Shown here piece by piece: positions 39,883 to 52,523 of a DNA stretch of 52,747 nucleotides; the first letter of the stretch is position 1; each line of letters begins with the position of its first letter. Source of the DNA: Candidatus Hydrogenedentota bacterium. Lineage in GTDB: Bacteria; Hydrogenedentota; Hydrogenedentia; Hydrogenedentales; CAIZGN01. A model generated the notes under the pieces. That model was given only the letters and a program-made list of their open reading frames with translations. It was not told the DNA's origin and did no database searches. A program made the translations under genes and the position numbers. The stretch spans positions 1 through 52,747 of the forward strand of contig CAIZGN010000208.1 in NCBI GenBank assembly GCA_903932505.1, read 5' to 3'.

Positions 39883-40191
39883 ATTACAGGGTTCTTCGGG
39901 TCCCCGGATCGGTCTCTGTTGAGGCCAGCGTATTTGGGCGTGTCACCCCCGTGGACAGGTTCAGCCGTCCGACGTGGCACTAAAAATATGAGGAAGCAAC
40001 CGGCCACCTCTCGTGGGTGGCTGTGTAAAACACCGTGGATGCCGGCCTCGCCGGAGAATTCCCTGCACCCATAGCCAGTTTGGTTGAAAGGGTGTCGCTC
40101 TGTCCGGCGGATTCGCCGGGGTGACAGTGATGTGGGAACGACTCCAGGCGCTTTTCTGTTCTACATCCGGCATGCACGCATGGGAGCGGTC

Positions 40192-42486
40192 ATGTTCAAG
40201 CGAACAACGATGGATAAGTTCAGTATTGGAATGCGCTGGGCACTGCCGGGGGGATTACTTTTCTCCTTGATGGCTGCCTTGCTGACCGGTGGCTGCGCCA
40301 CCACCAGGCCTACGGAAACCCACCAGTTTGATCCCGCCCCGCGTGCCAATGTGAAGACCGATGACCTCGATCCTGTCAATAATCGGCCTGTCGTTGAACT
40401 TTTGCGGGAGGCCGCCAAGGCCTTCGAAGATGGCAACAAGGCCGAAGAGGCCGGTGATCATAAGAAATCCGTCGAGTGCTACGCCCTCATGCTCAAGCGC
40501 ATGACCGAGGCAGACATGGATCCTTCGGTGTTCTATTCCATGCGCAAGGAATTCGGGAAGATCCTCAATTCCACCAATCACCACTCCAAAACCCATCCCA
40601 ACCAGTTGGACTCCGCAGCCGGAGAAAAGGGCGACCTCCGGGTTCCGTTTCCCCTGCCGGAGCCGGTTCTGGCCGAAATCGAGTTCTGGCAACACACCAT
40701 TCCCGGGAAATTCCAGACCTTCCTCAATCGCAGCCCCCGCTACATGCCCTATATGCGAAGGGAATTTGAAAAAGCCGGTCTGCCCCCCGATGTGGCTTGG
40801 CTCGCCCTAATCGAAAGCGGCTTCAGCACCTCCGCGACCTCGCCTGCAGGGGCGGGCGGGATGTGGCAGTTCATGCGCCCCACGGCCACTCGGTACGGTC
40901 TGCAGCAGGATACTTATGTCGATGAGCGCAATGACTGGAAGTCTGCCACCCGAGCGGCCATTGAATACCTCAAGTACCTGCGTGATGAGTTTGATGGTGA
41001 TTGGGCTCTCGCGCTCAGCGCCTACAACATGGGCGAGGGCGGTCTGCAGCGCTCCATTGACGCCAACGGGGGCGACCACGATTTCTGGAGCCTCATCCAG
41101 ACGCCTCCGGCCTCGGACCGCATTCGCCTCGAAACCAAACGCTACTATCCGCTGTTTCTCGCGGCCATGATTATCGCCAACAGTCCCGAGCGCTACGGAT
41201 TCACCATTACCCCTCAGCCGGAAGAAAGTACGGCGGAGGTGCGCGTCAAGGGTATGTATGCGCTTTCCGATTTGGATAAGGCCATGGGCTATAGCTCTGG
41301 AACCCTTTCCAAGCTCAACCCTGAACTCATCAAGGAAGTCACCCCGCCCAACCGCGAATTCCGGGTCGCTGTGCCTGCTGCGGATGAAGAAAAGTTTGCC
41401 GCCGCCATCAAAGACATGCCTCAGGTCGAAATATACGCCAAATATCAGGTGCGAAAGGGCGACACGCTTGCCAAGGTCGCCCAGCAATACGGCATGGATC
41501 CGCGCGATCTGGCCCAGTGCAACAAACTGCGTCCGGGCAGCTCCATTCGCAAAGGGCAGGTGCTTCGTGTACCCAATGCACCGGAAGGTCGCGGAGGCAG
41601 CACTGAAACCAAGGATGCGGACGACGACAAGAAAGACGCCCCCAGCGAAGAATCCAAGCTGGCCACCTCGGGCGACACGAACGGCTATACCGTCCGTCCC
41701 GGGGATACCCTTAACGAAATAGCCAAGTCCAACGGCCTGGAATTGCGGCAGTTGAAAGAGTGGAATCAGATTGACGAGGCGGCTGTCATCCGGCCCGGCG
41801 ACCGGCTGCATATTTCTGACCCGGCCCAACCCGCCAAGAAGGACACCGCCGCCGAGGCTGCTTCTGGCCAGTCGTATTCCGTGCAATCGGGCGACACGCT
41901 GAACAAAATCGCGCTGAAATACAAGGTTAGCGTCGATAATCTGCGCGCGTGGAATGGGCTTTCCGGCGACACGCTGCTGCACGTGGGCGACTCCCTGCGG
42001 CTCGCCGCCAAAGGGAAAGCAGCCCCGACCGCCTCCCCGGCCCCGGCCGCCGCAAAAACAGCCAAGACGGCCCCGACCATCAAGCACATAGTCGCCAAGG
42101 GCGACACGGCCAGCACCATTGCCTCCAAGTATGGCGTCAAGGTCAGTGACGTGCTTACCTGGAATTCCCTGACGCCGGCATCGGTGCTGAAACTTGGGCA
42201 GGTCTGCGTGATTCATCCCAGCGAAAAATCGGCGGCACCTGAAGTCGTGGCCAAGGAAGTAAAGGAAGCCCCTGCTGAGCGAACACAACTCGCCGAGGCC
42301 AAGGACCCCGCCCCCAAGGCGGCCAAAGCGGCGGAGCCCATCGTGCATGTGGTGTCCAAGGGCAACAACCCGTCCGGGATTGCCCGCCAATACGGTGTGC
42401 GCGTTAGTGATTTGTTCAAGTGGAATAATTGGCCCCAAACGCCCGTCCTCAAAGTGGGTGATGAGGTTAAGGTGTTTAAGAAGTAA
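40192..42486 (+). CDS. Membrane-bound lytic murein transglycosylase (MltD-like) lipoprotein with five LysM domains
   Basis: Start set at MFKRTT (GGGAG RBS), with lipobox LLTGGC. The SLT catalytic block is LIESGFSTSATSPAGAGGMWQFM...AYNMGEG. The five LysM repeats are YQVRKGDTLAKVA, YTVRPGDTLNEIA, YSVQSGDTLNKIA, HIVAKGDTASTIA and HVVSKGNNPSGIA. Confidence 0.85.
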   Translation: MFKRTTMDKFSIGMRWALPGGLLFSLMAALLTGGCATTRPTETHQFDPAPRANVKTDDLDPVNNRPVVELLREAAKAFEDGNKAEEAGDHKKSVECYALMLKRMTEADMDPSVFYSMRKEFGKILNSTNHHSKTHPNQLDSAAGEKGDLRVPFPLPEPVLAEIEFWQHTIPGKFQTFLNRSPRYMPYMRREFEKAGLPPDVAWLALIESGFSTSATSPAGAGGMWQFMRPTATRYGLQQDTYVDERNDWKSATRAAIEYLKYLRDEFDGDWALALSAYNMGEGGLQRSIDANGGDHDFWSLIQTPPASDRIRLETKRYYPLFLAAMIIANSPERYGFTITPQPEESTAEVRVKGMYALSDLDKAMGYSSGTLSKLNPELIKEVTPPNREFRVAVPAADEEKFAAAIKDMPQVEIYAKYQVRKGDTLAKVAQQYGMDPRDLAQCNKLRPGSSIRKGQVLRVPNAPEGRGGSTETKDADDDKKDAPSEESKLATSGDTNGYTVRPGDTLNEIAKSNGLELRQLKEWNQIDEAAVIRPGDRLHISDPAQPAKKDTAAEAASGQSYSVQSGDTLNKIALKYKVSVDNLRAWNGLSGDTLLHVGDSLRLAAKGKAAPTASPAPAAAKTAKTAPTIKHIVAKGDTASTIASKYGVKVSDVLTWNSLTPASVLKLGQVCVIHPSEKSAAPEVVAKEVKEAPAERTQLAEAKDPAPKAAKAAEPIVHVVSKGNNPSGIARQYGVRVSDLFKWNNWPQTPVLKVGDEVKVFKK

Positions 42487-42647: not shown

Positions 42648-42676
42648 TTGAAGAAGCCGGGTACAGGTGGTATACT
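42648..42676 (+). promoter_or_regulatory. Extended -10 sigma-70-like promoter in front of the small-peptide array
   Basis: TTGAAG (42648-42653), a 17-nt spacer ending in TGG, then TATACT (42671-42676), giving TGnTATACT. It lies about 70 nt upstream of the first small ORF. Confidence 0.55.
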
Positions 42677-42744: not shown

Positions 42745-42894
42745 ATGAAGCATATACGAACAGTTTCAAAGAGCCGGGATAGGGCACCTCAAGCTGCGGC
42801 ATCCACATCGATCGGGCTATTTCTGGAGTTCTTCACAAATCTCTTGAGCGCGGTAGCCACCTTTTTCACAGGCAAGGAATCCGCTTCCGCCTGA
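42745..42894 (+). CDS. Small ORF P1 (49 aa), candidate precursor or bacteriocin-like peptide
   Basis: Hand translation: MKHIRTVSKSRDRAPQAAASTSIGLFLEFFTNLLSAVATFFTGKESASA. GAGGGA lies 8 nt upstream. It shares the MKHI(R/K)..S N-terminus and the FTNL and T..T.K....SA blocks with its paralogs. It is not in the supplied ORF track. Confidence 0.65.
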   Translation: MKHIRTVSKSRDRAPQAAASTSIGLFLEFFTNLLSAVATFFTGKESASA

Positions 42895-42948
42895 GGATAT
42901 CTGGTTCCCCGCGTTCGTCGGGGTCTTTATAAGGAGGGAAAAGCAACC

Positions 42949-43089
42949 ATGGTTCACATACGCGCGATCAGTAAACGGCCTTCCGTTGCGGCAGACCGGG
43001 CGACCTTGGGTCAGGTACTCACGGTAGTCGCCGAAATGTTCAGAGTATTGGTGACCGCCCTCACCGCGAAAAACGCCACATCGGCATAA
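42949..43089 (+). CDS. Small ORF P2 (46 aa), paralog of P1
   Basis: Hand translation: MVHIRAISKRPSVAADRATLGQVLTVVAEMFRVLVTALTAKNATSA. A strong AAGGAGGG RBS is at 42931-42938. The C-terminal TALTAKNATSA parallels TFFTGKESASA of P1. Confidence 0.7.
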   Translation: MVHIRAISKRPSVAADRATLGQVLTVVAEMFRVLVTALTAKNATSA

Positions 43090-43146: not shown

Positions 43147-43335
43147 ATGCGGCATACACGAATGCTTACCTTGGTGCCTGCAAAGGCCGAGAGTGCCATT
43201 TGCACTGGGATTACCAGCGATTTTCAGGCGCAGCTCTGCTTCCTGTCCACGGCATTGACTTCGTTCTTTCTGCCAGTCATCCAACTGAAGCAGCCGGTGA
43301 CCCCCACGGACACGAACCAGACCGCTACCGCCTGA
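43147..43335 (+). CDS. Small ORF P3 (62 aa), divergent paralog with two Cys and a Thr/Pro-rich tail
   Basis: Present in the ORF track: MRHTRMLTLVPAKAESAICTGITSDFQAQLCFLSTALTSFFLPVIQLKQPVTPTDTNQTATA. An AGAGGAGAAGGA RBS is present. TALTSFF parallels SAVATFF of P1. Confidence 0.6.
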   Translation: MRHTRMLTLVPAKAESAICTGITSDFQAQLCFLSTALTSFFLPVIQLKQPVTPTDTNQTATA

Positions 43336-43390: not shown

Positions 43391-43528
43391 ATGAAACGTT
43401 TGAAACCGTTGACTCAGGCGCCTGTTCGCGCCGCCTCGATTCCCGTGGAAGTGAAGATGACCTTTATTTCGCAGTTCATCGGTATCACCACCCCACTGGT
43501 TCAAGGGAAAGATCAGGTCAACGCATAA
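43391..43528 (+). CDS. Small ORF P4 (45 aa), divergent paralog
   Basis: Hand translation: MKRLKPLTQAPVRAASIPVEVKMTFISQFIGITTPLVQGKDQVNA. GAAGGA lies 7 nt upstream. It has the same basic N-terminus and hydrophobic core layout as the others. Confidence 0.55.
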   Translation: MKRLKPLTQAPVRAASIPVEVKMTFISQFIGITTPLVQGKDQVNA

Positions 43529-43589: not shown

Positions 43590-43712
43590 ATGAAACATAT
43601 CAAACGGATTTCCACCGTTGCCCGCGCGGAAGCCTTCACCAACCTGTTCAACGCCGCCTACAGGGCTTGGCGGGACTTCCAGTACAACAAGAAATACGAG
43701 ATGGGCATCTAG
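43590..43712 (+). CDS. Small ORF P5 (40 aa), paralog of P1
   Basis: Hand translation: MKHIKRISTVARAEAFTNLFNAAYRAWRDFQYNKKYEMGI. GGAG lies 7 nt upstream. MKHIKRIS matches MKHIRTVS of P1, and AFTNLF matches FFTNLL of P1. Confidence 0.65.
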   Translation: MKHIKRISTVARAEAFTNLFNAAYRAWRDFQYNKKYEMGI

Positions 43713-43826: not shown

Positions 43827-43849
43827 CCCGGCGACTGGGTTTCGCCGGG
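43827..43849 (+). terminator. Hairpin (possible leaky terminator or processing site) between the peptide array and the enzyme genes
   Basis: Perfect 8-bp stem CCCGGCGA / TCGCCGGG with a 7-nt loop, followed by CTTCTTCTG. A second hairpin, GCAGATCAGC / GCTGACCTGC (9 of 10 bp), lies at 43726-43754. Confidence 0.4.
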
Positions 43850-43879: not shown

Positions 43880-44428
43880 ATGATTTCCGGCGCTCATGGA
43901 CATATCCGGCAGGCCGACGCCGATGACGCTGCGGCCCTTTGCGCCTGTTATCGATCCGGCGATCTGCGCGCCTCGGTGCTTGATGGAAAGCGTGAGCCGC
44001 TGGAACCCTCCTTGGATGAGCTGCGCGAAACCCTCGGCAGGCCCGAGGTCGGCCCGGGGCTCTTCTATGCCGCCGAAGATCTACAGGGATGCGTGCGGCT
44101 CTTCTGCGCCTTGCGTCGCGCTCCCTTCGAGGCGCGTTTCGGTGAATTTGTGGTCTTCTATGGAGAGGAATCCGAATTGGAACAGCCCATTGCCGGGGAA
44201 ATGATGGCGTTTATCCACCGCAGGGCATTTACAGAAATGAATCTCCGCAAGCTTACTGCGCACTGTCTCACGATTGAGGAACGCCTGGCTCAATTCCTGC
44301 GTTCCCACGGATTCGTGGGGCAGGGCATCATGCGCGAAGCCTACTACGCACGGGGCCGGTGGCACGATTTTGAGGCTCTGGCCCTTTTGGCTTCGGATGC
44401 ATTGGAAAGGCCAGCATGCCCATCGTGA
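43880..44428 (+). CDS. GNAT family N-acyl/acetyltransferase (RimJ/RimL-like)
   Basis: Start set at MISGAHGHIRQADADD, with AAGGAGG at 43869-43875. The GNAT C-terminal pattern is LRKLTAHCLTIEERLAQFLRSHGFVGQGIMREAYYARGRWHDFEALALL. The longer ORF-track N-terminus overlaps P5 and the hairpin spacer. Confidence 0.8.
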   Translation: MISGAHGHIRQADADDAAALCACYRSGDLRASVLDGKREPLEPSLDELRETLGRPEVGPGLFYAAEDLQGCVRLFCALRRAPFEARFGEFVVFYGEESELEQPIAGEMMAFIHRRAFTEMNLRKLTAHCLTIEERLAQFLRSHGFVGQGIMREAYYARGRWHDFEALALLASDALERPACPS

Positions 44429-45048
44429 CGGATACCTTTCTGCGCCGCGCCGAGCGTGGCGACTTGGACACCGTGGCCGCATGGATGGAGCGGCCCGACT
44501 TCCAGCATTTTCTCTATGGCGACCCGGCCCGCGCGCCCAAGCAGGTGCGCGCCCAGATTGTGGCCATGCTGGGTCGCGCCGCCGGACACACCATGCCGGG
44601 CGGCATCTATCTCATCATTGATTCAAAATCCAGTGGGCCACTTGGCCTGCTATCGCTCCAGAACATCAGTTGGCGCAATCGCTCCTGCACGGTCGATGTG
44701 TACCTTGGTGAAGAATCCCGACGCAGCCGCATGACCTCCGCCATCGCCGTGTATCGTGCCCTCGAATATGGCTTTGACGAGTTGAACCTCCACCGCATCG
44801 GAGCCTTTATTTACGCATTCAACACCGCGTCCTGGCGCATCATGGAATTGAGCGGCGCCCGCCGCGAGCTTACCCTGCAGGCCCATGTGCCCCGCGATGG
44901 AAAACTGCACGACATGTACGGCTACGGCCTTCTCAAACCGGAATTCGACGCCCTGCGTGACCGATATCGTCGGCATGCGGATGGCGGGTTTTCACTGCGT
45001 GCCATGATCGAGGCCATGGCCGGAGACGCGGCAGAGGGCGACACGTGA
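44416..45048 (+). CDS. GNAT family N-acyl/acetyltransferase (RimJ/RimL-like), second copy
   Basis: 13-nt overlap with the previous gene. GNAT blocks are LRRAERGDLDTVAAWM, RNRSCTVDVYLGEE and LNLHRIGAFIYAFNTASWRIMELSGARRELTLQAHVPRDGKLHDMYGYGLL. Confidence 0.8.
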   Translation: MPIVTDTFLRRAERGDLDTVAAWMERPDFQHFLYGDPARAPKQVRAQIVAMLGRAAGHTMPGGIYLIIDSKSSGPLGLLSLQNISWRNRSCTVDVYLGEESRRSRMTSAIAVYRALEYGFDELNLHRIGAFIYAFNTASWRIMELSGARRELTLQAHVPRDGKLHDMYGYGLLKPEFDALRDRYRRHADGGFSLRAMIEAMAGDAAEGDT

Positions 45049-45776
45049 GGGCCATCCTCGACACGACATGGGCGCGCGGACTCATCGTGCCGTTCCTTGT
45101 CCTGTTCTTTCTGCTCGCCGTTGGCACCCTCTGGCACAACCGGCGGGGAAGCACGCCTTCGCGATACTTACCTGCCGCTGCACTCGGTCTGCAGACCGCC
45201 CTGTTTCTCCTCGCCGTCTATTACGCAGCCCGTCTGGGTGCCTTTTCACGTGATCTGGCGTCGCCCGGTTACATCCTGCTGGGGCTCCTGCTGGGCCACC
45301 TGCTCTTCGCGATTTCCTTGCTGGTCACCCACAACGTGTGGCGCGACGCGATCGTGCATTTCTTCGACCTCGGGGGATTCGTCCGCTTTCTCGCGGAAAC
45401 CCCCACGCTCATCGGTCGTTTCATCGCGGTGAGCTTTGCGGAGGAATTGATTTACCGGGTGGCGGCCCAACCCCTGCTTGTGACGCTGACCGGACAGGCG
45501 TGGCTCGCCATTCTTCTCGTGGCGGCCGTTTTCTCCATCGTCCACAAGCACTTCTTTGAAAACGAGCTGTTGCAATCGGTGGAGTTTGCCGGTTTCTCCA
45601 TCGTGCTGGGCGTGTTGTACCATTGTTTCGGTAGCCTCAGCCTTGTGCTGGTGGTGCATACTGTGCGCAATCTTGAAAGTGTGTTCCTGGAGTATCTGCT
45701 CAAGGCGGGTGAACTGGGGGATGAAGCCCTTGCCCTCGCCGAACTCGAACAAGCCTACATGAAGAAGTCGGTGTAA
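45045..45776 (+). CDS. CPBP family intramembrane glutamic endopeptidase (CAAX protease/Abi-like, bacteriocin-immunity-type)
   Basis: GTG start inside a GTGA overlap. The protein is polytopic. The three CPBP motifs are EELIYR, FSIVHK and VVHTVRN. Confidence 0.8.
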   Translation: MRAILDTTWARGLIVPFLVLFFLLAVGTLWHNRRGSTPSRYLPAAALGLQTALFLLAVYYAARLGAFSRDLASPGYILLGLLLGHLLFAISLLVTHNVWRDAIVHFFDLGGFVRFLAETPTLIGRFIAVSFAEELIYRVAAQPLLVTLTGQAWLAILLVAAVFSIVHKHFFENELLQSVEFAGFSIVLGVLYHCFGSLSLVLVVHTVRNLESVFLEYLLKAGELGDEALALAELEQAYMKKSV

Positions 45777-46801
45777 TGACTATGAACGATTCCTATCTCG
45801 TGGAAGCCGAAGACATCAACAAGACCTTCTACACGCGCCATTTCCTGCAATTGGACGAGGACACAAGGCAACGGCGCTGGTACAAGATGAACACCGTGCA
45901 TGCCGCCGAATCCATTTCGTTTGGCATCCGTCCTGGCGAGGTCTTTGGCCTGCTCGGGCCCAATGGTGCGGGCAAGACCACCGCGGTCAAAATGATCTCC
46001 GGCCTCATCCGACCCGACAGCGGTCGGGTGCTGGTCGACGGAATGGATGTCGAGAAAAAACGAAAACAAATCCTCCGAAAAATTGGCGTGGTGCTCGAAG
46101 GAACCCGCACCAGCATCTGGCCCCTGACCCCGCTCGAAAATCTCGTCTACTATGGCAATCTCCGCAATGTGCGCGGAAAAATCCTCAAGGATCGCTCGCA
46201 CGAACTTCTCGATTTCATCGGCCTCAAAGAGAAAAAAAACGTGGAGGTGCGAAAGCTGTCCCGGGGACAGAAACAGAAGCTGGCTATCTGCATCGCCATG
46301 ATTTCGGATCCCATGGTGCTCCTTTTAGACGAGCCCACCACCGGTCTCGACGTGCAAAGTGCCCGCGCCATCAAGGACAAAATCATCGAGATGACCCGGG
46401 GGCAGGGACGCTGTGTTCTGGTGACCACCCACGACATGCACGTGGCGCAGGAATTGTGCGACCGCATCGGGATCATCGACAAGGGCAAGCTGGTCGCCTG
46501 TCAGCCCACCCCGGATTTGTTGGGACTCTTCTCCGAAGAAATGTATCTCTACCGTCTGGATCGCCAGCCCGAACCCGGGGAATTCTCCGGCATCAACGGT
46601 GTGCTGTCTGTCGAAATCGATCCCGAGGCGGAAGGCCCCAATATTCTTGTCCAACTGGATCTGTCGCCCGCCGCGCGGTCAGAGGCCTTCTATGGCCTCG
46701 CCGAACGCCTACGGGGTTTGGGTTGCGAGTTGCGTGCCATTGAGCACCGCCAGCAGAATCTTGAACGGGTATTCTTGAAGCTCACCACGAGCACCATATA
46801 A
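45776..46801 (+). CDS. ABC transporter ATP-binding protein (ABC-2/DrrA-like exporter subunit)
   Basis: TAATG overlap with the upstream gene. Walker A GLLGPNGAGKTT, signature LSRGQKQKLAI and Walker B LLLDEPTTGLD. Confidence 0.9.
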   Translation: MTMNDSYLVEAEDINKTFYTRHFLQLDEDTRQRRWYKMNTVHAAESISFGIRPGEVFGLLGPNGAGKTTAVKMISGLIRPDSGRVLVDGMDVEKKRKQILRKIGVVLEGTRTSIWPLTPLENLVYYGNLRNVRGKILKDRSHELLDFIGLKEKKNVEVRKLSRGQKQKLAICIAMISDPMVLLLDEPTTGLDVQSARAIKDKIIEMTRGQGRCVLVTTHDMHVAQELCDRIGIIDKGKLVACQPTPDLLGLFSEEMYLYRLDRQPEPGEFSGINGVLSVEIDPEAEGPNILVQLDLSPAARSEAFYGLAERLRGLGCELRAIEHRQQNLERVFLKLTTSTI

Positions 46802-46820: not shown

Positions 46821-47705
46821 ATGGGTTTTTTCTTGGTCATGAAAGCGGAGATTGTCCGCTCCTGGATCATCACGCGGCGGTATTGGTTCCGCACCGTCAC
46901 CGGGCTCGTCCTCAGCTACGGCATGCTGCTCGTGCTGGTTCTGGGCTTTCTCTTCAGTCAGGGCGACCCGTCGGGTGCGCCTCAGATTGCCGGGGTTCCA
47001 TCGCCCGTCAGTCTTATGCCTGCCCAGCAGGGGGAGGGTATCCTGGGCATTGTCAGCCAGGACAGTGAAAAGGCCACAAACTATATTCTGGGCTTCATCA
47101 TCGGCATCTTCGCCTTCGGCGTGGTCGGTATGTTCAGTCAGGGGCTGCAGGACATGGCGGGTTCCGGCGTTCTTGAACAGTTGTGCATGAGTCCCCACGG
47201 ACTCATCACCAATTTCCTCGCCCGATGTTTCGTCGGCTCGATCATGAGCATCTTTTCCTCAAGCATCATGGTGTGGATGGTGACCAAGACGGTTGGCGGC
47301 ATTCTGCACTTCAGCTTCGTTCCCGTGTTTACCCTGCTCTTCCTCACCTTCTGCAATCTGCTCGGATTCGGCTTCGTGGTTGGCGGGTTGGTGCTTGTCT
47401 TCAAACAGGTGGGTCAGGTCGCCATCATCCTCCGGATTGTCCTGTTCGCGCTTGCGGTGCTGGCGAAGGAGGAGCTGCTGGCCCGTGGTTGGGCCATTGC
47501 GGCCATCATGCATGCCATGCCCATCACGGACGCCGCCATTTGCCTCAAGAAGGTCCTCATACAGGACGTGGGCTTTGCGATTTTTGTGCACCCCTGTTTC
47601 TACTGGCTGATCGCGAGCTGCATATTCTGGACCACGCTCGGCATGGGGCTGTTCCGGTATTTCGAGGACTGGAGTCGCTCCAAGGGAACGCTGGGAGCCT
47701 ATTAA
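46821..47705 (+). CDS. ABC-2 type transporter permease
   Basis: GGAAGGA RBS. About six predicted TM segments. It lies directly after the ATPase gene. Confidence 0.75.
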   Translation: MGFFLVMKAEIVRSWIITRRYWFRTVTGLVLSYGMLLVLVLGFLFSQGDPSGAPQIAGVPSPVSLMPAQQGEGILGIVSQDSEKATNYILGFIIGIFAFGVVGMFSQGLQDMAGSGVLEQLCMSPHGLITNFLARCFVGSIMSIFSSSIMVWMVTKTVGGILHFSFVPVFTLLFLTFCNLLGFGFVVGGLVLVFKQVGQVAIILRIVLFALAVLAKEELLARGWAIAAIMHAMPITDAAICLKKVLIQDVGFAIFVHPCFYWLIASCIFWTTLGMGLFRYFEDWSRSKGTLGAY

Positions 47706-47706
47706 C

Positions 47707-49539
47707 ATGAAAACTGCCGGGTTGCATCGCTTTGAAGAAGAGGGAAAACGGTTTGCGGTGGACACCGAAACCTGCTTCTGCTTCGAATGCGACGCGGTCT
47801 CCTGGGATGTGCTTGAACATTACCCAGAGGCCAGCGTAGCCCGGTTGGCGCACCTGCTCGAGGGGCGGTACTCGCAGCGGGAGATCGAAGAGGTCGTCGG
47901 CGAGCTCGAATGGCTGCGATCCTGCAACTCCATCCTGCCCGCCCTTTCGCAGGAAGTGCTTCAGAAACAGTTTGACGTTGAAACCGGACTCCACACCTTC
48001 TCGCTGGACTGGCCCCTCGGTTCCATACGGCAAGTGCTTCCCCAGGCCCTGTCAATGTTCCTTGGTCGCTCAGGATTGCAGAAAAACCTGCGTTTCCAGC
48101 TCCGGCTTCCTGCGGATTTCAGTCCGTCCCCGGAACTGCTCTGGGCCTGTGCGGAAATCTTTCGCGCCGCACGCCTTGCCTCGAAAAACATGGGCCTGGT
48201 GCTGCATACCAAGGTTTCCGCCATCCGTGGAATCCCCGCCGCCCTAGCCGGGCAGGGTCTCGCCATCGAGTGGACGGTCAAGGAGGGCGAGGGCGAAACT
48301 GCGGTCTCCGGCATGGCCGCCTGCCTGAACGTTGTTTGGGGGAAGCTCGCGAAGACGCTGCAGGGCACGGTGGTTCTGTGTCCGCGCACCGGTTCGTTTC
48401 TTGAGGGGGTTCGCGAATTGGCGAAAGCCGGGTTCCCGCACATTCGCCTGGACATGGAAGGGGCTTATGCGGGATCGCCGGGCATCGATCCTGCAGACTT
48501 CACCGCAGGACTGCGCGCGACCGCACGCTTCTATGCGGAGGAGTTGCGATGCCAGCACTATTTCCGCCTCGACCCCATCGCCGAACTGTTCCACCAGATT
48601 TATGTGGGCCAGCCGGTTCGCCGCCGCGACCCGGCGGGGACCAACGAACTCGCCGTCGATGCGCGGGGCCACGTCTATCCATCGCGCGCCCTCTGCGGGA
48701 TTGACGCCTTCGACGCCGGCGGTCTCACCGAAAGTCCCCTCGATGAACGCGTACTCGACCCCTTCGAGGATCTCGGCAGCGTGACCACCCCGGCCTGCAT
48801 ACGCTGCTGGGCACGCAATCTCTGCGGTGGCGGTGCTGCAGCCGTGCACCACGCCTATACCGGATCGTTTCGGCATCCCCACGGCCCTTGGTGCGATGCG
48901 CAGCGTGCCTGGCTCGCGAATGCGGTGGCCGCCTTCAGTCTATTGTCCGCCGAGGGTATCAATTTCTCGCGCATGATTCAGGGACTCACCCCCGCCGAAA
49001 AGCCATCTTGGCGACTGCTCATGCGGGCCGCCTTCCGCATGCACATTGGTCTGCGCCCCATCGAGGAGGCCGACGCCGAATGGCTCACCCGCTGGGAAAA
49101 CTGGAACGAGGCGGCCTATTTCCTCCTGCACGAAAGCGGTCTTTTTCTTGCCACCCAATACGACCGCGAAATGGACTCCCTGCATCCCCCGGCCTATGAG
49201 AGCGAATTCGTGTTGGTGCACAAGAACAGCAAGCCCTTCGGACTGATCAAAATACGGCCCGACCGCGTACCCGGCGTCGCCCTGCTATGGCTTTACTTCC
49301 GCAATGAAGCGGACTACGCCTCCAAATCCGTCCGCGAATCGTTTCGCTTTCTCCTCGGCGAGACCGCCGGTCAGCAGCAGCTCCGACGGCTGCTGTGTCC
49401 CGCAGGGCCCGGCGATACGGGACTGGCGCAATTCTTGACCGCCGTGGGATTTCGCGAGGAGGGTGTCCTGCGTGAAGCGCTCTTCCTGCACGGCAAGCAC
49501 CACGACATCACGCTCTTCTCGTACACCGTTCCCGCTTGA
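47707..49539 (+). CDS. Fusion protein: PqqD-like RiPP recognition element + Cys-depleted radical-SAM/SPASM-like body + C-terminal GNAT domain
   Basis: The N-terminus RFAVDTETCFCFECDAVSWDVLEHYPEASVARLAHLLEGRYSQREIEEVVGELEWL fits the PqqD/RRE pattern. The SPASM-like segment is GTNELAVDARGHVYPS...TPACIRCWARNLCGGG...GPWC. No CX3CX2C occurs anywhere in the protein. The C-terminal GNAT is LRPIEEADAEWLTRWEN...LRRLLCPAGPGDTGLAQFLTAVGFREEGVLREALFLHGKHHDITLFSY. Confidence 0.7.
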   Translation: MKTAGLHRFEEEGKRFAVDTETCFCFECDAVSWDVLEHYPEASVARLAHLLEGRYSQREIEEVVGELEWLRSCNSILPALSQEVLQKQFDVETGLHTFSLDWPLGSIRQVLPQALSMFLGRSGLQKNLRFQLRLPADFSPSPELLWACAEIFRAARLASKNMGLVLHTKVSAIRGIPAALAGQGLAIEWTVKEGEGETAVSGMAACLNVVWGKLAKTLQGTVVLCPRTGSFLEGVRELAKAGFPHIRLDMEGAYAGSPGIDPADFTAGLRATARFYAEELRCQHYFRLDPIAELFHQIYVGQPVRRRDPAGTNELAVDARGHVYPSRALCGIDAFDAGGLTESPLDERVLDPFEDLGSVTTPACIRCWARNLCGGGAAAVHHAYTGSFRHPHGPWCDAQRAWLANAVAAFSLLSAEGINFSRMIQGLTPAEKPSWRLLMRAAFRMHIGLRPIEEADAEWLTRWENWNEAAYFLLHESGLFLATQYDREMDSLHPPAYESEFVLVHKNSKPFGLIKIRPDRVPGVALLWLYFRNEADYASKSVRESFRFLLGETAGQQQLRRLLCPAGPGDTGLAQFLTAVGFREEGVLREALFLHGKHHDITLFSYTVPA

Positions 49540-49558: not shown

Positions 49559-50098
49559 TCAACCGCCCGGCGCGGACTCCAGTATTTTCACCACCTCGGT
49601 CTGCCGCTCTTTTCTGGCAAGATCCAGCGGGGTGCGCCCGGCGCTGTTCTTCTCCGCACAATCCGCGCCGCGTGACCGTAATAAAGCCACCATGCCAGTC
49701 TGGCCGAAGAGCGCAGCCGTGTGCAGCGGTGTATCGCCGAACTCATCCTTGGCGGCAAGTGCCACACCGTGCGCCAGCAACCACACCGCCTCCGCATCCC
49801 GCCCCATCATCGCTGCGACATGCAGCGGCGTCATCCCGGTGCGGTCCCGGGTCTCAAGCGTGCCCCCGTGCTGCAACAAGAGTTCCATGAGGTCAACGCG
49901 CCCCATCGTCACGGCATAGTGCATGGACGTCTTGCCCAAGCTGTTCACGGTGTTCACACACGAAGGATCCTGTGTCAGCAGTGCTTCCAGCGCCTGTTTG
50001 TCGCCCCGGGCCACGAGGTCGTGCGGTCGATCCGCGCAACCCGCGAGGGCCAGCAACGCAACGCCCCAGACCAGCAGTTGACTATTCCTTCTTTTCAT
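49559..50098 (-). CDS. Ankyrin-repeat lipoprotein
   Basis: Start set at MKRRNSQLLVWGVALLALAGC (lipobox). Four ANK repeats are present (GKTSMHYAVTMGRVDLMELLLQHG, GMTPLHVAAMMG, GDTPLHTAALFG, GRTPLDLA). It overlaps the upstream gene by 17 nt. Confidence 0.8.
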   Translation of the reverse strand: MKRRNSQLLVWGVALLALAGCADRPHDLVARGDKQALEALLTQDPSCVNTVNSLGKTSMHYAVTMGRVDLMELLLQHGGTLETRDRTGMTPLHVAAMMGRDAEAVWLLAHGVALAAKDEFGDTPLHTAALFGQTGMVALLRSRGADCAEKNSAGRTPLDLARKERQTEVVKILESAPGG

Positions 50099-50987
50099 CC
50101 GCCGGTTCCTTCTCCGTTTTTTCGGGCTTCTCTTCCTTGATCGTTCCCCGGTGCACAAATTCCCACGATTCTGTAAACACGAGCGGGGCACCCAGCGAAA
50201 CATCCTGCGACGCGCTTTGCAGCGCGGCCCCGTAACTCCGCGTGGCATCGTCCAGCACACAGAAGAACGGCGTGGCATTGTCCGGGGTGGCATCTTCTGC
50301 GGTTGCTTTCTCAATCGTCCGTTTCCAGAATCCGGATCGATTTTCGAGGGAGAAACTGAGGACGGCGGCACCCAGCACCGCCTTGTTCACTGAACTCGTG
50401 GGGGGGACGGGGATCAGCCAGTAGTTCATGGAGCGAACCACCACCGGGGCCAATTTTTCTAACCCGGCCAACGGGAGAATCTCGGTTTTTTCCTTCTCCA
50501 CGCGGATGGTGCTGCGCAGCGGAACCCGCACCGTGTTGCGTACCGAATATCGCTTACTCTCCTGCGACTGCGCCAGCAAAGTCACCGTGTAGCGGGCTTT
50601 GGCCTCGTCGCCCTCAAGGCGCAGCTCCTTTTTCATGCGCACCCCGAGCTTTTCCGAAACCGGCCCCAGCAGGATAACGGAGTGGGCATCCTGAAACTCC
50701 ACCGAGGCGGGTCCGCGACGCAAGACCGCCTCGCGTTCTGGCGCGGGAAAGACATCCGTCACTAGACCGCCGGGATCCACCCAGCCACTACCCGCGCGGG
50801 CCTCCTCCTCAACCAGCAGCCGCTCCATGAAATTCGCGCCGCCGGGAAACCCCGCAAATTGCACAGAGAACAGCTGCGGGTCGACTTCGATCCGAATTGC
50901 GCTGTTTTCGAGAATGATCGGGCCTGCGCAAAAGCAGGCGTACATGGCAATCCACACTCCAGACACGTTTTCTCCTCCGCAGGCCAT
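50082..50987 (-). CDS. Hypothetical protein (beta-rich, lysine/glutamate-rich tail)
   Basis: A long ORF with ordinary composition. The start is uncertain, at 50987 (MACGG, GGAGGGG upstream) or 50945 (MYAC). The upstream part of the ORF track entry would run into the divergent mqnA-like gene. Confidence 0.5.
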   Translation of the reverse strand: MACGGENVSGVWIAMYACFCAGPIILENSAIRIEVDPQLFSVQFAGFPGGANFMERLLVEEEARAGSGWVDPGGLVTDVFPAPEREAVLRRGPASVEFQDAHSVILLGPVSEKLGVRMKKELRLEGDEAKARYTVTLLAQSQESKRYSVRNTVRVPLRSTIRVEKEKTEILPLAGLEKLAPVVVRSMNYWLIPVPPTSSVNKAVLGAAVLSFSLENRSGFWKRTIEKATAEDATPDNATPFFCVLDDATRSYGAALQSASQDVSLGAPLVFTESWEFVHRGTIKEEKPEKTEKEPADEKKE

Positions 50988-51062: not shown

Positions 51063-51863
51063 ATGCGTCTGGATATCATGGAAAACGAAATCCGAATGGG
51101 TGTTGCGCCGGAGCCGTGCGCCGCGTTGTTTGCCTGCGGCATAGAGGCGCAGCCCCGCGTCGTGCTTGTGCGAGCCGAGGCGGAAACCCTTGCACAGGGG
51201 CTTGCGGAGGGTTCGATCGACTGTGCGCTGATTCCGCCGCTCGCCGCTTTCCGCATTCCCTTCTGTCGGCTCGTGCCCGGGCAGGGGGTCTGCGCGGAGT
51301 TGAAAACGCAAAGCGAACGGCTCATCGCGCGGGAGCCACAGCGGTCACTGACCCGCTTACAGGTTGCCCCGTCCGCCCGCGCGATGATCGACTGGGCGCG
51401 ACTCCTGCTCGCCGAGGAAAGCGGTTTTCTGATGGAGTGGGGTGAGTACGAGGGAGGCCCCTCAGACGACCTTCCGTCGGGAACCGGGCTGCTCTTGGGT
51501 GGCGCGGAAGGGTTGGGCTATAGCGGCACAGAAAGCTCCGCACATGACCTCGGAACCATGTGGCGAGAAAGCACAGGATTGCCCGCCGTGCTGCGGGTAT
51601 GGGCTTGCCGGTTCCGCGCTCCCTATCCCGGCATTCGCGCGTGCCTGTGGCGGGCTCGTCAGCATGGGGAAGACCACTTCGACGCCTGCGTGAAGCAATC
51701 GGCTGAAACCTTCGGAATCCCAGACGCACTTCTGCGCGACTATCTTGCGCAAACCCTGTCTTATTCCGTCGGTAGCTTGGAAGCGGACAGCCTGCGCCAC
51801 CTCGTGGCGATGGCACACCGCCACGGCCTCTTCCCCGAGCCCCCGGGCCTACAATTCTGCTGA
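51063..51863 (+). CDS. mqnA: Chorismate dehydratase MqnA-like (futalosine menaquinone pathway)
   Basis: HDLGTMWRESTGLPAVLRVWACR closely parallels the MqnA block HDLG..W...TGLPFVFAVWA.R as I remember it. The size and N-terminal IRMGV fit. The start may be 51063 or 51078. Confidence 0.65.
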   Translation: MRLDIMENEIRMGVAPEPCAALFACGIEAQPRVVLVRAEAETLAQGLAEGSIDCALIPPLAAFRIPFCRLVPGQGVCAELKTQSERLIAREPQRSLTRLQVAPSARAMIDWARLLLAEESGFLMEWGEYEGGPSDDLPSGTGLLLGGAEGLGYSGTESSAHDLGTMWRESTGLPAVLRVWACRFRAPYPGIRACLWRARQHGEDHFDACVKQSAETFGIPDALLRDYLAQTLSYSVGSLEADSLRHLVAMAHRHGLFPEPPGLQFC

Positions 51864-51869
51864 CTCCGA

Positions 51870-52523
51870 CTATACCGCTAGTCCCCAGATATCGAGATGC
51901 CGATCCGTGGCAGCCGCCACACGAAGTGTGCCCAAACCACTGTCCACCAGTTGCTGCCACACTTCCTTCACGGTGTACGCGGCGAGAAAGGAGCGATAGA
52001 ACTCCTCCTGCAACAAGGCGGATTCCTTCCCGGCATATTGTTGCACGAGCCGATGGGCCTCAGCCTCCGAAGCGGGCCGCATGAGATCCCGAAAGAAGAT
52101 GGGCGTGCCCGGTTTGGCCAGACGCCGCACCTCGCTCCATAGCTCGGCGGGTTCGGCCACATGATGCAGTATGCTGTTTGAGAACACGAGAGAGAAGGTG
52201 TGATCTGGAAACGGAACGCCCCGCGCATCGGCAATCACCCAATGCGGCGCGATATCAGGCCCTGCGTTTTTTCGGGCATGTCGCAGCATGGCCGCAGAAG
52301 CGTCCAGACCCACCACATCCCAGCCCGGTCGCGCCTGACGCACCCGCAGCGCAATGTCCCCGGGCCCGCAGCCCAAATCCAGCGTGCGAATAGCCGAAGG
52401 TCCTGGTGCCACCTCCAGCAAACGCGTCACAAACGCAGCGTTTACCTCCGCAAAATCAGCCTCGGCATAAGCCCGCGCTTCCTCCGGGTCATCCATCCAT
52501 TCGGGTTCCGGTTTGCGATCCAT
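51870..52523 (-). CDS. Class I SAM-dependent methyltransferase
   Basis: SAM-binding motif I is TLDLGCGPGDIAL. Post-I/II-like blocks are VVGLDAS and LVFSNSILHHV. Confidence 0.8.
   Translation of the reverse strand: MDRKPEPEWMDDPEEARAYAEADFAEVNAAFVTRLLEVAPGPSAIRTLDLGCGPGDIALRVRQARPGWDVVGLDASAAMLRHARKNAGPDIAPHWVIADARGVPFPDHTFSLVFSNSILHHVAEPAELWSEVRRLAKPGTPIFFRDLMRPASEAEAHRLVQQYAGKESALLQEEFYRSFLAAYTVKEVWQQLVDSGLGTLRVAAATDRHLDIWGLAV

Follow-up and report, generated by a model that had tools for sequence, protein, structure and literature searches.

A degenerate radical-SAM/SPASM maturase fused to a GNAT domain in a conserved peptide cassette of Hydrogenedentota

What does a peptide maturase do that has lost the motifs for its own chemistry and carries an acyltransferase domain at its C-terminus? 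This question is raised by an open reading frame (ORF) encoding 610 amino acids on contig CAIZGN010000208.1 of a Candidatus Hydrogenedentota bacterium, which was analysed over its whole stretch of 52,747 nucleotides (the window). The predicted product, called the fusion in the following, combines a recognition element (RRE) for peptides that are synthesized ribosomally and modified post-translationally (RiPPs), a body resembling radical S-adenosylmethionine (SAM) enzymes with a SPASM domain, and a GNAT domain. Its first approximately 435 residues are homologous from end to end with the SCIFF/ranthipeptide maturase CteB, and the last approximately 165 residues form a RimL/RimJ-like GNAT domain. 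We are highly confident of the anatomy of the fusion as a pseudo-radical-SAM protein in which the ligands of the second auxiliary cluster (AuxII) are the only ones kept. With moderate confidence, the protein is regarded as a descendant of a SCIFF/ranthipeptide-type RRE-radical-SAM-SPASM maturase that now serves as a pseudoenzyme scaffold. The fusion and its parts are the following.

47707..49539, plus strand: fusion protein consisting of RRE, degenerate radical-SAM barrel, AuxII-only SPASM domain and GNAT domain; ORF of 610 amino acids, supported by homologues, the CteB profile match and Foldseek.
47707..47931, plus strand: RRE, a predicted winged helix-turn-helix leader-binding domain (residues 1-75), from the alignment with CteB chain positions 5-73 and the secondary structure of the AlphaFold2 model.
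47773..47790, plus strand: cysteine triad C23-F-C25-F-E-C28 (CFCFEC, pattern CxCxxC; residues 23-28) on strand beta3 of the RRE, from family conservation.
47992..48606, plus strand: degenerate radical-SAM partial TIM barrel (residues 96-300), from AlphaFold2 repeats and the CteB core alignment; CX3CX2C loop deleted and GGE motif lost.
48607..48951, plus strand: SPASM-derived domain (residues 301-415) with the AuxII ligands C364, C367, C373 and C396 (nucleotides 48796-48894), from TIGR04085 and the CteB alignment.
49042..49539, plus strand: fused C-terminal RimL/RimJ-like GNAT domain (residues 446-610), from the family profile, Foldseek and Pfam Acetyltransf_4.

More than 300 full-length homologues of the fusion were found, which excludes a chance origin of the architecture. 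Residue counts for the family refer to 150 full-length members, and Pfam tallies as well as the family profile refer to 33 relatives (alignment A1, 33 sequences). The profile of these 33 members matches CteB in a single uninterrupted alignment from profile position 4 to 435 and from chain position 5 to 445 (E=1.7e-37). In searches of the PDB with phmmer and the single sequence as query, residues 4-72 of the fusion match CteB chain 5-73, which is the RRE, and residues 310-396 match chain 349-435 in the SPASM region without a gap. An AlphaFold2 model of the fusion (mean predicted local distance difference test score, pLDDT, 79.2; predicted TM-score 0.66) shows an N-terminal domain of three strands and three helices, beta/alpha repeats, a helical SPASM region and the GNAT domain. 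The top match of this model in Foldseek is again CteB (E=1.4e-15, 472 aligned columns, target-normalised TM-score 0.64), so the middle region is related to radical-SAM/SPASM enzymes, as the original prediction, made by reading the letters, had supposed. The alternative that the middle region is unrelated to radical-SAM enzymes was rejected by profile, structure and family alignments, and the region is a genuine, degenerate radical-SAM core. NCBIfam models of SCIFF, QhpD, Nif11, PapB and other radical-SAM/SPASM maturases match the fusion partially, covering only their C-terminal approximately 100 positions, and there is a weak N-terminal match to RumMC. With 51.5 bits against a cut-off of 425 bits, the fusion lies below membership of the SCIFF maturase model TIGR03974. 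Its relatives in the databases bear generic names such as "SPASM domain-containing protein", "GNAT family N-acetyltransferase" or "hypothetical protein".

The barrel has kept its fold and lost its motifs. The model shows residues 97-300 as beta/alpha repeats (pLDDT values of 85-95), in agreement with a partial (beta/alpha)6 TIM barrel. The CX3CX2C motif of radical-SAM enzymes, whose absence from the 610 residues had already been stated at first reading, is found neither in the protein nor in the six frames of the ORF with 300 nucleotides on each side nor in any of the 150 full-length family members. A frameshift or sequencing error hiding the motif was rejected on the same grounds. In alignment A2, which comprises the window protein, fused relatives and intact radical-SAM relatives, the window sequence is gapped exactly at the CNLRCxYC of the intact proteins. 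The loop is thus deleted in comparison to CteB and the intact relatives, and the relatives of the window protein carry a cysteine-free variable insert at the place of the radical-SAM loop. The SAM-binding GGE motif has been lost as well: GGEP is changed to LPAD, and the FFGGEPLLNF of the intact relatives aligns to LRLPADFSPSPE in alignment A2. None of the 33 family members matches the Pfam family Radical_SAM (PF04055). Because both the cluster motif and the SAM motif were tested and neither is present, the fusion, as judged from its motifs, does not belong functionally to the radical-SAM superfamily.

In the SPASM domain, the loss of ligands is selective. The domain is recognized by NCBIfam TIGR04085 at residues 310-394 (29.9 bits, cut-off 27), and Pfam SPASM (PF13186) matches one of the 33 members (E=0.092). 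The segment reads AGTNELAVDARGHVYPS and CIRCWARNLCGGGA, followed by GPWC downstream, exactly as quoted in the original prediction of a SPASM-type segment with replaced ligands. The seven-cysteine motif CX9-15GX4C...CX2CX5CX3C...C is incomplete, with the AuxII ligands alone remaining. In CteB, the radical-SAM cluster is bound by C104, C108 and C111, the first auxiliary cluster (AuxI or AC1) by C344, C362 and C413, and the second (AuxII or AC2) by C400, C403, C409 and C432 (PMC10177961). For the mapping of these ligands, 3 has to be added to the published CteB numbers to obtain the PDB chain numbers, and 39 has to be added to the query numbers in the ungapped alignment. The AC2 ligands C400, C403, C409 and C432 thereby correspond to C364, C367, C373 and C396 of the window protein. 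Of the AC1 ligands, C362 corresponds to S326 and C413 to A377. C344 has no counterpart and falls into an insertion between P309 and A310, while MAFFT places it on D308. There is also no window residue for C104, C108 and C111, their loop being deleted. The AC2 positions are cysteine in 149-150 of the 150 members; 145 members have Asp at position 308, 99 have Ser and 24 have Cys at position 326, and position 377 varies. The serine after GX4, the alanine at the last cysteine of CX2CX5CX3C and the missing upstream cysteine had all been noticed before, and they are these three AC1 positions. The earlier proposal of a radical-SAM/SPASM maturase with lost radical chemistry and at most one auxiliary site can therefore be refined by scoring each Fe-S ligand in the alignment: the exact four-ligand AuxII set is retained, and all AuxI and radical-SAM ligands are gone in the window protein. 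In total, the fusion has 14 cysteines, at positions 23, 25, 28, 73, 148, 206, 225, 282, 330, 364, 367, 373, 396 and 564. In CteB-type enzymes, AuxI is the cluster that binds the substrate cysteine (PMC10177961, PMC8326336). The retained AuxII site of the fusion probably holds a structural [4Fe-4S] cluster. A divergent clade of fused proteins with approximately 25% identity, P0156 (L085), P0158 (L087 8001-9923) and P0161 (L089), has all seven SPASM cysteines and neither CX3CX2C nor the cysteine triad of the RRE. This clade looks like an evolutionary intermediate.

The assignment of the N-terminal approximately 70 residues to a PqqD-like RRE is confirmed by the CteB alignment and by the modelled fold, in which strands at residues 7-11, 14-19 and 24-28 are followed by three helices. 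This is the three-stranded sheet with three helices of an RRE, and it is homologous to that of CteB. Pfam PqqD itself is marginal, with weak matches to 2 of the 33 members; poor matches to this hidden Markov model are common for fused RREs (PMC7470986). In CteB, the leader is held as a beta-strand by strand beta3 and helix alpha3 of the RRE (PMC8326336). Leader binding by the RRE of the fusion is suggested by a leader motif that its putative precursors have in common with SCIFF systems, and by the conservation of leader positions 7 and 8 in all of the 88 precursors described below.

The atypical CFCFEC sequence that had been pointed out within the RRE is located on strand beta3. Each of its cysteines is found in 146-147 of the 150 members, and the most conserved 10-residue block of the whole protein is formed by residues 21-30, which contain C23-F-C25-F-E-C28-D. 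E27 and D29 are common to the fusion and its intact relatives in alignment A2, and the three cysteines are not. The triad is missing in the intact radical-SAM relatives as well as in the clade of P0156, P0158 and P0161, and in the fused proteins P0151 and P0152 only one cysteine of the triad is missing and AuxI has been lost. Since the divergent clade combines all seven SPASM cysteines with the absence of the triad, and P0151 and P0152 combine a partial triad with the absence of AuxI, the triad's gain and the loss of AuxI go together. According to these alignments, the triad is a lineage-specific gain, confined to lineages from which the AuxI ligands have disappeared. A fourth invariant cysteine that could accompany the triad was not found anywhere in the fusion protein.

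Constraint is distributed unevenly over the protein. When columns conserved to at least 95% are counted as strongly conserved, there are 20 among the 75 columns of the RRE, 24 among the 115 of the SPASM domain and 21 among the 165 of the GNAT domain. The C-terminal half of the barrel has 7 in 105, and the N-terminal half, which would be the part binding SAM and the cluster, has none in 100. This pattern fits a scaffold and not an active site.

What the scaffold might serve is indicated by the genes with which it occurs. The fusion gene is the last of a co-directional cassette that starts with two to five precursor genes, followed by two GNAT genes and the genes for a CPBP protease, an ABC ATPase and an ABC-2 permease. 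The six-gene order is complete in 48 loci of a genome scan and is the same in every homologue contig of sufficient length, and the genes flanking the cassette vary between loci. The cassette has the composition of a RiPP gene cluster: precursors whose leader is conserved and whose core varies are encoded together with an RRE protein, a protease and an exporter. In the window, the following features precede the fusion gene.

42648..42676, plus strand: promoter-like site upstream of P1, TTGAAG-17-TATACT with TG extension; consensus match only.
42745..42894, plus strand: precursor P1, with MKHIRTVSK leader, amphipathic core and ...TGKESASA tail; features common to 88 precursors.
42907-42923: terminator-like hairpin after P1; consensus match only.
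42949..43089, plus strand: precursor P2, MVHIRAISK...TAKNATSA; orthologous type in L002, L033 and L086.
43147..43335, plus strand: precursor P3 of the two-cysteine type, MRHTRMLTL...C-x11-C...LKQP...
43391..43528, plus strand: precursor P4, MKRLKPLTQ...IPVEVK...QGKDQVNA.
43590..43712, plus strand: precursor P5 of the most conserved type, MKHIKRIS..AEAFTNLFNAAYRAWRDFQYNKKYEMGI; approximately 34 orthologues share ...ADAFTNFMNAVWRAWQDFRYEKKNE...
43827..43849, plus strand: terminator-like hairpin between P5 and GNAT1, with an 8-pair stem including 7 GC pairs and then a T-rich tail; consensus match only.
43880..44428, plus strand: GNAT1, stand-alone paralogue of the fused GNAT domain; Pfam Acetyltransf_4 E=7.7e-7, position kept in 48 loci.
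44416..45048, plus strand: GNAT2 of the Acetyltransf_3 type; Pfam Acetyltransf_3 E=1.6e-15, strongly conserved.
45045..45776, plus strand: CPBP (Rce1-like) intramembrane glutamic protease; Pfam PF02517 E=6.3e-11, with EExxxR, FxxxH and HxxxN motifs in the translation.
45776..46801, plus strand: ABC transporter ATPase (DrrA-like); Pfam ABC_tran E=1.4e-30, TIGR01188 E=8e-69.
46821..47705, plus strand: ABC-2 type permease; Pfam ABC2_membrane_3 E=8.5e-4, syntenic in all related loci.

The precursors were compared as a set of 88 distinct small ORFs from related loci and the window, with leader positions 7 and 8 lying outside the search pattern. They start with M-(K/R)-H-(I/V/L)-(K/R)-x-(I/V/L/M)-(S/T), and all 88 have I, V, L or M at position 7 and S or T at position 8. 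Their common leader, which is of the SCIFF type, can be summarised as MKHI(K/R)x(I/V)(S/T). Cysteine is absent from 71 of them. A lysine occurs within the last 16 residues in 83, usually followed by N, E or D, and the lysine frequency is 0.090 in this tail versus 0.017 earlier in the core. There are approximately five core types, and the P5-type core is near-invariant even at a locus whose fusion is just 30% identical to that of the window. A protein database search with P5 returned four close relatives, a low number due to the fact that small ORFs are rarely called, and an NCBIfam search with the precursors gave no match at E values up to 10. Judged by their leaders and composition, P1 to P5 are genuine precursors with a SCIFF-type leader. 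The hairpins after P1 and before GNAT1 would fit attenuation, which could possibly yield an excess of precursor transcript. The P3 type has two conserved cysteines with approximately 11-12 residues between them (C...SDYQALLCF), despite a maturase without thioether machinery, and has orthologues at L033, L035, L042, L047, L057, L058, L074, L076 and L086. The cysteine pair may form a disulfide or be a relic of the ancestral system.

The RimJ/L-type GNAT domain that had been assigned to the C-terminus is borne out by the family, as Pfam Acetyltransf_4 (PF13420) matches it in 30 of the 33 relatives (best E=3.2e-8). The window copy is sub-threshold in Pfam (Acetyltransf_4 E=0.11, 13 bits against a cut-off of 24.3). 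The family profile matches RimL (1s7k) with E=6.9e-6, and in Foldseek the domain matches SpeG, RimJ, RimL and YdaF with E values of approximately 1e-8 and a probability of 1.0. The fused GNAT domain and GNAT1 are paralogues (BLASTP E=7e-7). At the beta4-alpha3 loop, both have D-Y-A-x-x-x-V/I or an equivalent, compared with F-Q-G-Q-G-I-M in RimL. In motif A of the fused domain, the FQGQGIM of RimL aligns to D-Y-A-S-x-S-V, in which D536 and Y537 are invariant in alignment A1 and the glycines are missing. This loss does not prove a loss of CoA binding, because the binding is done by main-chain amides. The N-x-x-S motif is also missing in the fused domain and in GNAT1 and is kept in GNAT2, which is the most canonical of the three. 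The segment W463-P494 of the fused domain (WENWNEAAYF...YDREMDSLHP; about nucleotides 49099-49188) is near-invariant in the family, yet modelled with pLDDT values below 50, and sits at the acceptor-binding place of GNAT proteins. Going by the model, it may be an acceptor-binding loop that becomes ordered only upon binding of a conserved substrate or partner.

The ancestry of the cassette is indicated by its intact relatives. When 1.84 billion representative proteins were searched, the matches after the fused family were ordinary proteins of 450-490 residues with E values of approximately 1e-45 to 1e-23, aligned over profile positions 1-445. The retrieved proteins of this kind are RRE-radical-SAM-SPASM maturases with CNLRCxYC, FFGGEPLLNF and all seven SPASM cysteines. 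SCIFF or SCIFF-like precursors are encoded beside them and begin with (M)KHIKTV... and MKHIKLLN...; the one beside P0175 contains ...LKHIKTVVAPRLRESMKYATCVDCQTSCQSACKTSCTVGNQVC. The closest intact relative, P0168, belongs to an uncharacterised metagenomic cluster (L090 2423-9437) that encodes three cysteine- and aromatic-rich precursors with MKHIKLLN leader, the RRE-radical-SAM-SPASM protein, a CPBP protein, an ABC ATPase, an ABC-2 permease and a second radical-SAM enzyme, and that looks like an uncharacterised ranthipeptide-like family. Precursors with an MKHIK leader occur in both clusters, and each of the shared parts is homologous to its counterpart in the window: the CPBP proteases are 34% identical (E=3e-17), the ABC ATPases 34% (E=4e-47), the ABC-2 permeases 26% (E=6e-7) and the maturase bodies 20% over 434 amino acids (E=7e-18). 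In contrast to the window, the P0168 maturase is intact, with Pfam matches to Radical_SAM and Fer4_12, the motif CNLRCKYC and seven SPASM cysteines; the precursor cores are rich in cysteine, GNAT genes are absent and the second radical-SAM gene lies downstream. Based on the common MKHI leader and the homologous CPBP, ABC, ABC-2 and maturase parts, the most plausible reading of the Hydrogenedentota cassette is that it descends from a SCIFF-like thioether system. The pair of leader and RRE as well as the protease/exporter module would have been kept from this ancestor. The core cysteines would have been lost together with the SAM cluster and AuxI, and three GNAT domains would have been gained.

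Among characterized systems, the SCIFF (ranthipeptide) maturases of the CteB type (TIGR03974, PDB 5WGG) are closest to the fusion. They have the same order of RRE, partial TIM barrel and SPASM domain, provide the best sequence, profile and structure match, have the identical AuxII ligand set and act with SCIFF peptides whose leaders likewise start with MKHI(K/R). The fusion differs from CteB by the absence of CX3CX2C, GGE and the AuxI ligands, by the additional C-terminal GNAT domain and CxCxxC triad, and by precursors that are mostly free of cysteine. Reduction of a SPASM-derived domain is also found in Twitch domains, which are shortened and keep the AuxI-equivalent cluster, as seen in BtrN in comparison to anSME structures, and Twitch enzymes are active radical-SAM enzymes. 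In the fusion, the full-length SPASM fold is kept, the AuxII set survives and AuxI is lost, which is the opposite of the Twitch truncation. Common to the fusion and the Twitch domains of BtrN, MoaA and SkfB is a SPASM-derived module reduced to a single auxiliary-cluster site (PMC10114670). A non-catalytic homologue of an enzyme fold that is fused to an RRE is known from the ocin-ThiF-like proteins (TIGR03693) of thiopeptide and heterocycloanthracin pathways. These proteins deliver the leader-bound peptide to a catalytic partner (PMC7470986), and the same logic is proposed for the fusion. Unlike the fusion with its radical-SAM-SPASM body, they have an E1/ThiF-like fold without Fe-S site, and their catalytic partner is not fused.

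Acyltransferases of the GNAT family in RiPP clusters are represented by the selidamide fatty-acyl transferases, which acylate Lys or Orn side chains of the leader-bearing precursor (PMC10849128). The conserved core lysine of the precursors described here is a candidate acceptor of this kind. The selidamide clusters differ in that their leaders are of the NHLP or Nif11 type and their GNAT proteins are not fused to an RRE-radical-SAM-SPASM body. The best matches of the fused GNAT domain by profile and fold are the ribosomal-protein N-alpha-acetyltransferases RimL, RimJ and YdaF (Acetyltransf_3/4). In contrast to these stand-alone enzymes, the fused domain has neither the conserved pyrophosphate loop nor N-x-x-S and is found in another substrate context. 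In the literature searched, which was limited in scope and does not prove novelty, no description of a SPASM-GNAT fusion lacking the radical-SAM part or of RiPPs from Hydrogenedentota was found.

Taken together, the fusion is proposed with moderate confidence to be an RRE-bearing pseudo-radical-SAM docking scaffold that presents leader-bound peptides to one or more GNAT domains. We infer this delivery to an acyltransferase from the fusion itself, the synteny and the features of the precursors. Strand beta3 of the RRE would capture the MKHI leader of each precursor as a beta-strand. The dead barrel and the SPASM body, stabilised by the AuxII cluster, would hold the core in place, in the manner of a spacer or channel. 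The fused GNAT domain would then transfer an acyl group to the core, perhaps within a heterodimer whose other partner is its paralogue GNAT1 or GNAT2, the more canonical protein, and the likeliest acceptor would be the epsilon-amine of the conserved lysine after the amphipathic helix. Finally, the leader would be cleaved off by the CPBP protease at the membrane, and the product would leave the cell through the ABC-2 transporter.

Several points weigh against this proposal. The proposal assigns no function to the invariant CxCxxC triad. The fused GNAT domain and GNAT1 have no canonical Q/R-x-x-G-x-G/A pyrophosphate loop, and the window copy scores below the Pfam cut-off; the fused domain could therefore be non-catalytic itself or use a donor other than acetyl-CoA. 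No precursors were found in the available flanks of the clade of P0156, P0158 and P0161, which keeps both auxiliary ligand sets. Phylum-wide conservation and a near-invariant P5-type core are unusual for an antimicrobial RiPP. Acyl transfer, acceptor residue and acyl donor are all inferred.

The triad is the starting point of the reading in which the fusion has remained a redox or radical enzyme. The three cysteines would bind a replacement [4Fe-4S] cluster, either with an open site like that of the SAM cluster or as a substitute for AuxI. This cluster and AuxII together would act on the peptide by non-canonical Fe-S chemistry, and the GNAT domain would be a tailoring add-on. The conservation of the triad in 146-147 of 150 members as the strongest block of the protein, its occurrence in lineages without AuxI ligands as opposed to the clade that keeps seven SPASM cysteines, the count of three cysteines without a fourth ligand, which is that of an open-site cluster, and the strict retention of AuxII all speak for such a function. 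Nevertheless, it appears distinctly improbable: GGE motif and cluster loop have both been lost, and no column in the SAM-binding half of the barrel is strongly conserved. Furthermore, the triad is situated in another domain on an edge beta-strand, where residues 23 and 25 should face the side opposite to residue 28 according to the modelled secondary structure and general reasoning, and P0151 and P0152, with just two of the triad cysteines, have lost neither any part of the cassette nor the P5-type peptide.

The non-canonical features of the fused GNAT domain would be explained if the fusion were a doubly dead adaptor. Both the radical-SAM and the GNAT parts would be non-catalytic, the RRE would dock the precursors, dimerisation between GNAT domains would recruit GNAT2, GNAT1 or both, and GNAT2 would do the chemistry. 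In agreement with this, the paralogous fused domain and GNAT1 share the non-canonical CoA loop and the lack of N-x-x-S, and GNAT2 keeps N-x-x-S and its clear Pfam match (E=1.6e-15). RimL-type GNAT proteins act as dimers. The fused domain is, however, as constrained as the RRE and the SPASM domain, including the invariant WENWNEAAYF...YDREMDSLHP at the acceptor-binding place, and 30 of the 33 members still give a GNAT match; the adaptor is considered unlikely. Least credible, and very improbable, is an immunity or detoxification and export system in which the GNAT proteins acetylate peptides to inactivate them inside the cell and the CPBP protein confers bacteriocin immunity. RimL-type GNAT proteins do detoxify microcin C, as the RimL-like domain of MccE does, CPBP/Abi proteins are bacteriocin immunity factors, and the cassette includes an ABC-2 exporter. 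However, the operon itself encodes the precursors, immediately upstream, and their leaders match the fused RRE; the CPBP and ABC module recurs in the intact relative beside a working maturase and its precursors; and the cassette contains no other maturase.

The docking scaffold thus remains the preferred reading, and the fusion and its cassette likely represent a new route to modified ribosomal peptides. A bolder version, which is put forward tentatively and must be called doubtful, would make the cassette the source of a new phylum-wide class of ribosomal peptides. The fossil radical-SAM body would be an Fe-S docking platform, and the triad would be a new metal or cluster site gating peptide binding or acyl transfer. 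The GNAT proteins would use a non-acetyl donor such as a fatty acyl or aminoacyl group, resulting in lipidated or extended amphipathic peptides, and the P5-type peptide (…AFTNFMNAVWRAWQDFRYEKKNE…) would be a conserved physiological factor of Hydrogenedentota, for example a signal or an envelope component, and not an antibiotic.

Relatives of the fusion were found in approximately 108 species-representative genomes, nearly all of which are assigned to Hydrogenedentota, Hydrogenedentes or Hydrogenedentales. Cassette genomes at L005, L011, L014, L018-L021 and L061 are labelled as Nitrospiraceae/Nitrospirales, Bathyarchaeia or Robiginitomaculum; these labels may be binning or taxonomy errors, given that the distribution is otherwise exclusively Hydrogenedentota. 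At L087, a gene for a TolC-like OEP protein follows the fusion P0158, and no MKH-type precursor was seen in the flanks. In the window, the cassette is directly preceded by a gene for an 800-residue protein (40084-42486) in which an SLT lytic transglycosylase domain is combined with five LysM repeats; it is not kept beside the cassette elsewhere. The downstream neighbours likewise lie outside the conserved cassette and encode an ankyrin-repeat protein (49559-50371, minus strand, convergent), a protein matching Pfam VitK2_biosynth (51063-51863, plus strand; menaquinone biosynthesis, MqnA-like) and a class I methyltransferase (51870-52523, minus strand). Neither Rfam families nor tRNAs were found in the 52.7-kb window. 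A known defence system was considered and rejected, as PADLOC matched nothing beyond generic ABC ATPase similarity. The cumulative GC skew of the window rises up to approximately 29 kb and then falls, and the turn coincides with a switch of the dominant coding strand.

A radical-SAM/SPASM RiPP maturase without radical chemistry that is yet under strong selection has the appearance of a natural experiment. The retention of AuxII alone bears on the long-standing question of the role of the second auxiliary cluster. It suggests a structural or docking role, which could be studied in this protein free of the other two clusters. The fusion also adds an example to the reuse of pseudoenzymes in RiPP pathways, here with an RRE scaffold serving a catalytic domain unrelated to it, and it may be a template for the engineering of leader-directed acyltransferases. 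For the uncultured Hydrogenedentota, the cassette is an unannotated and near-universal feature of the phylum, and its almost invariant peptide is a concrete target for heterologous expression.

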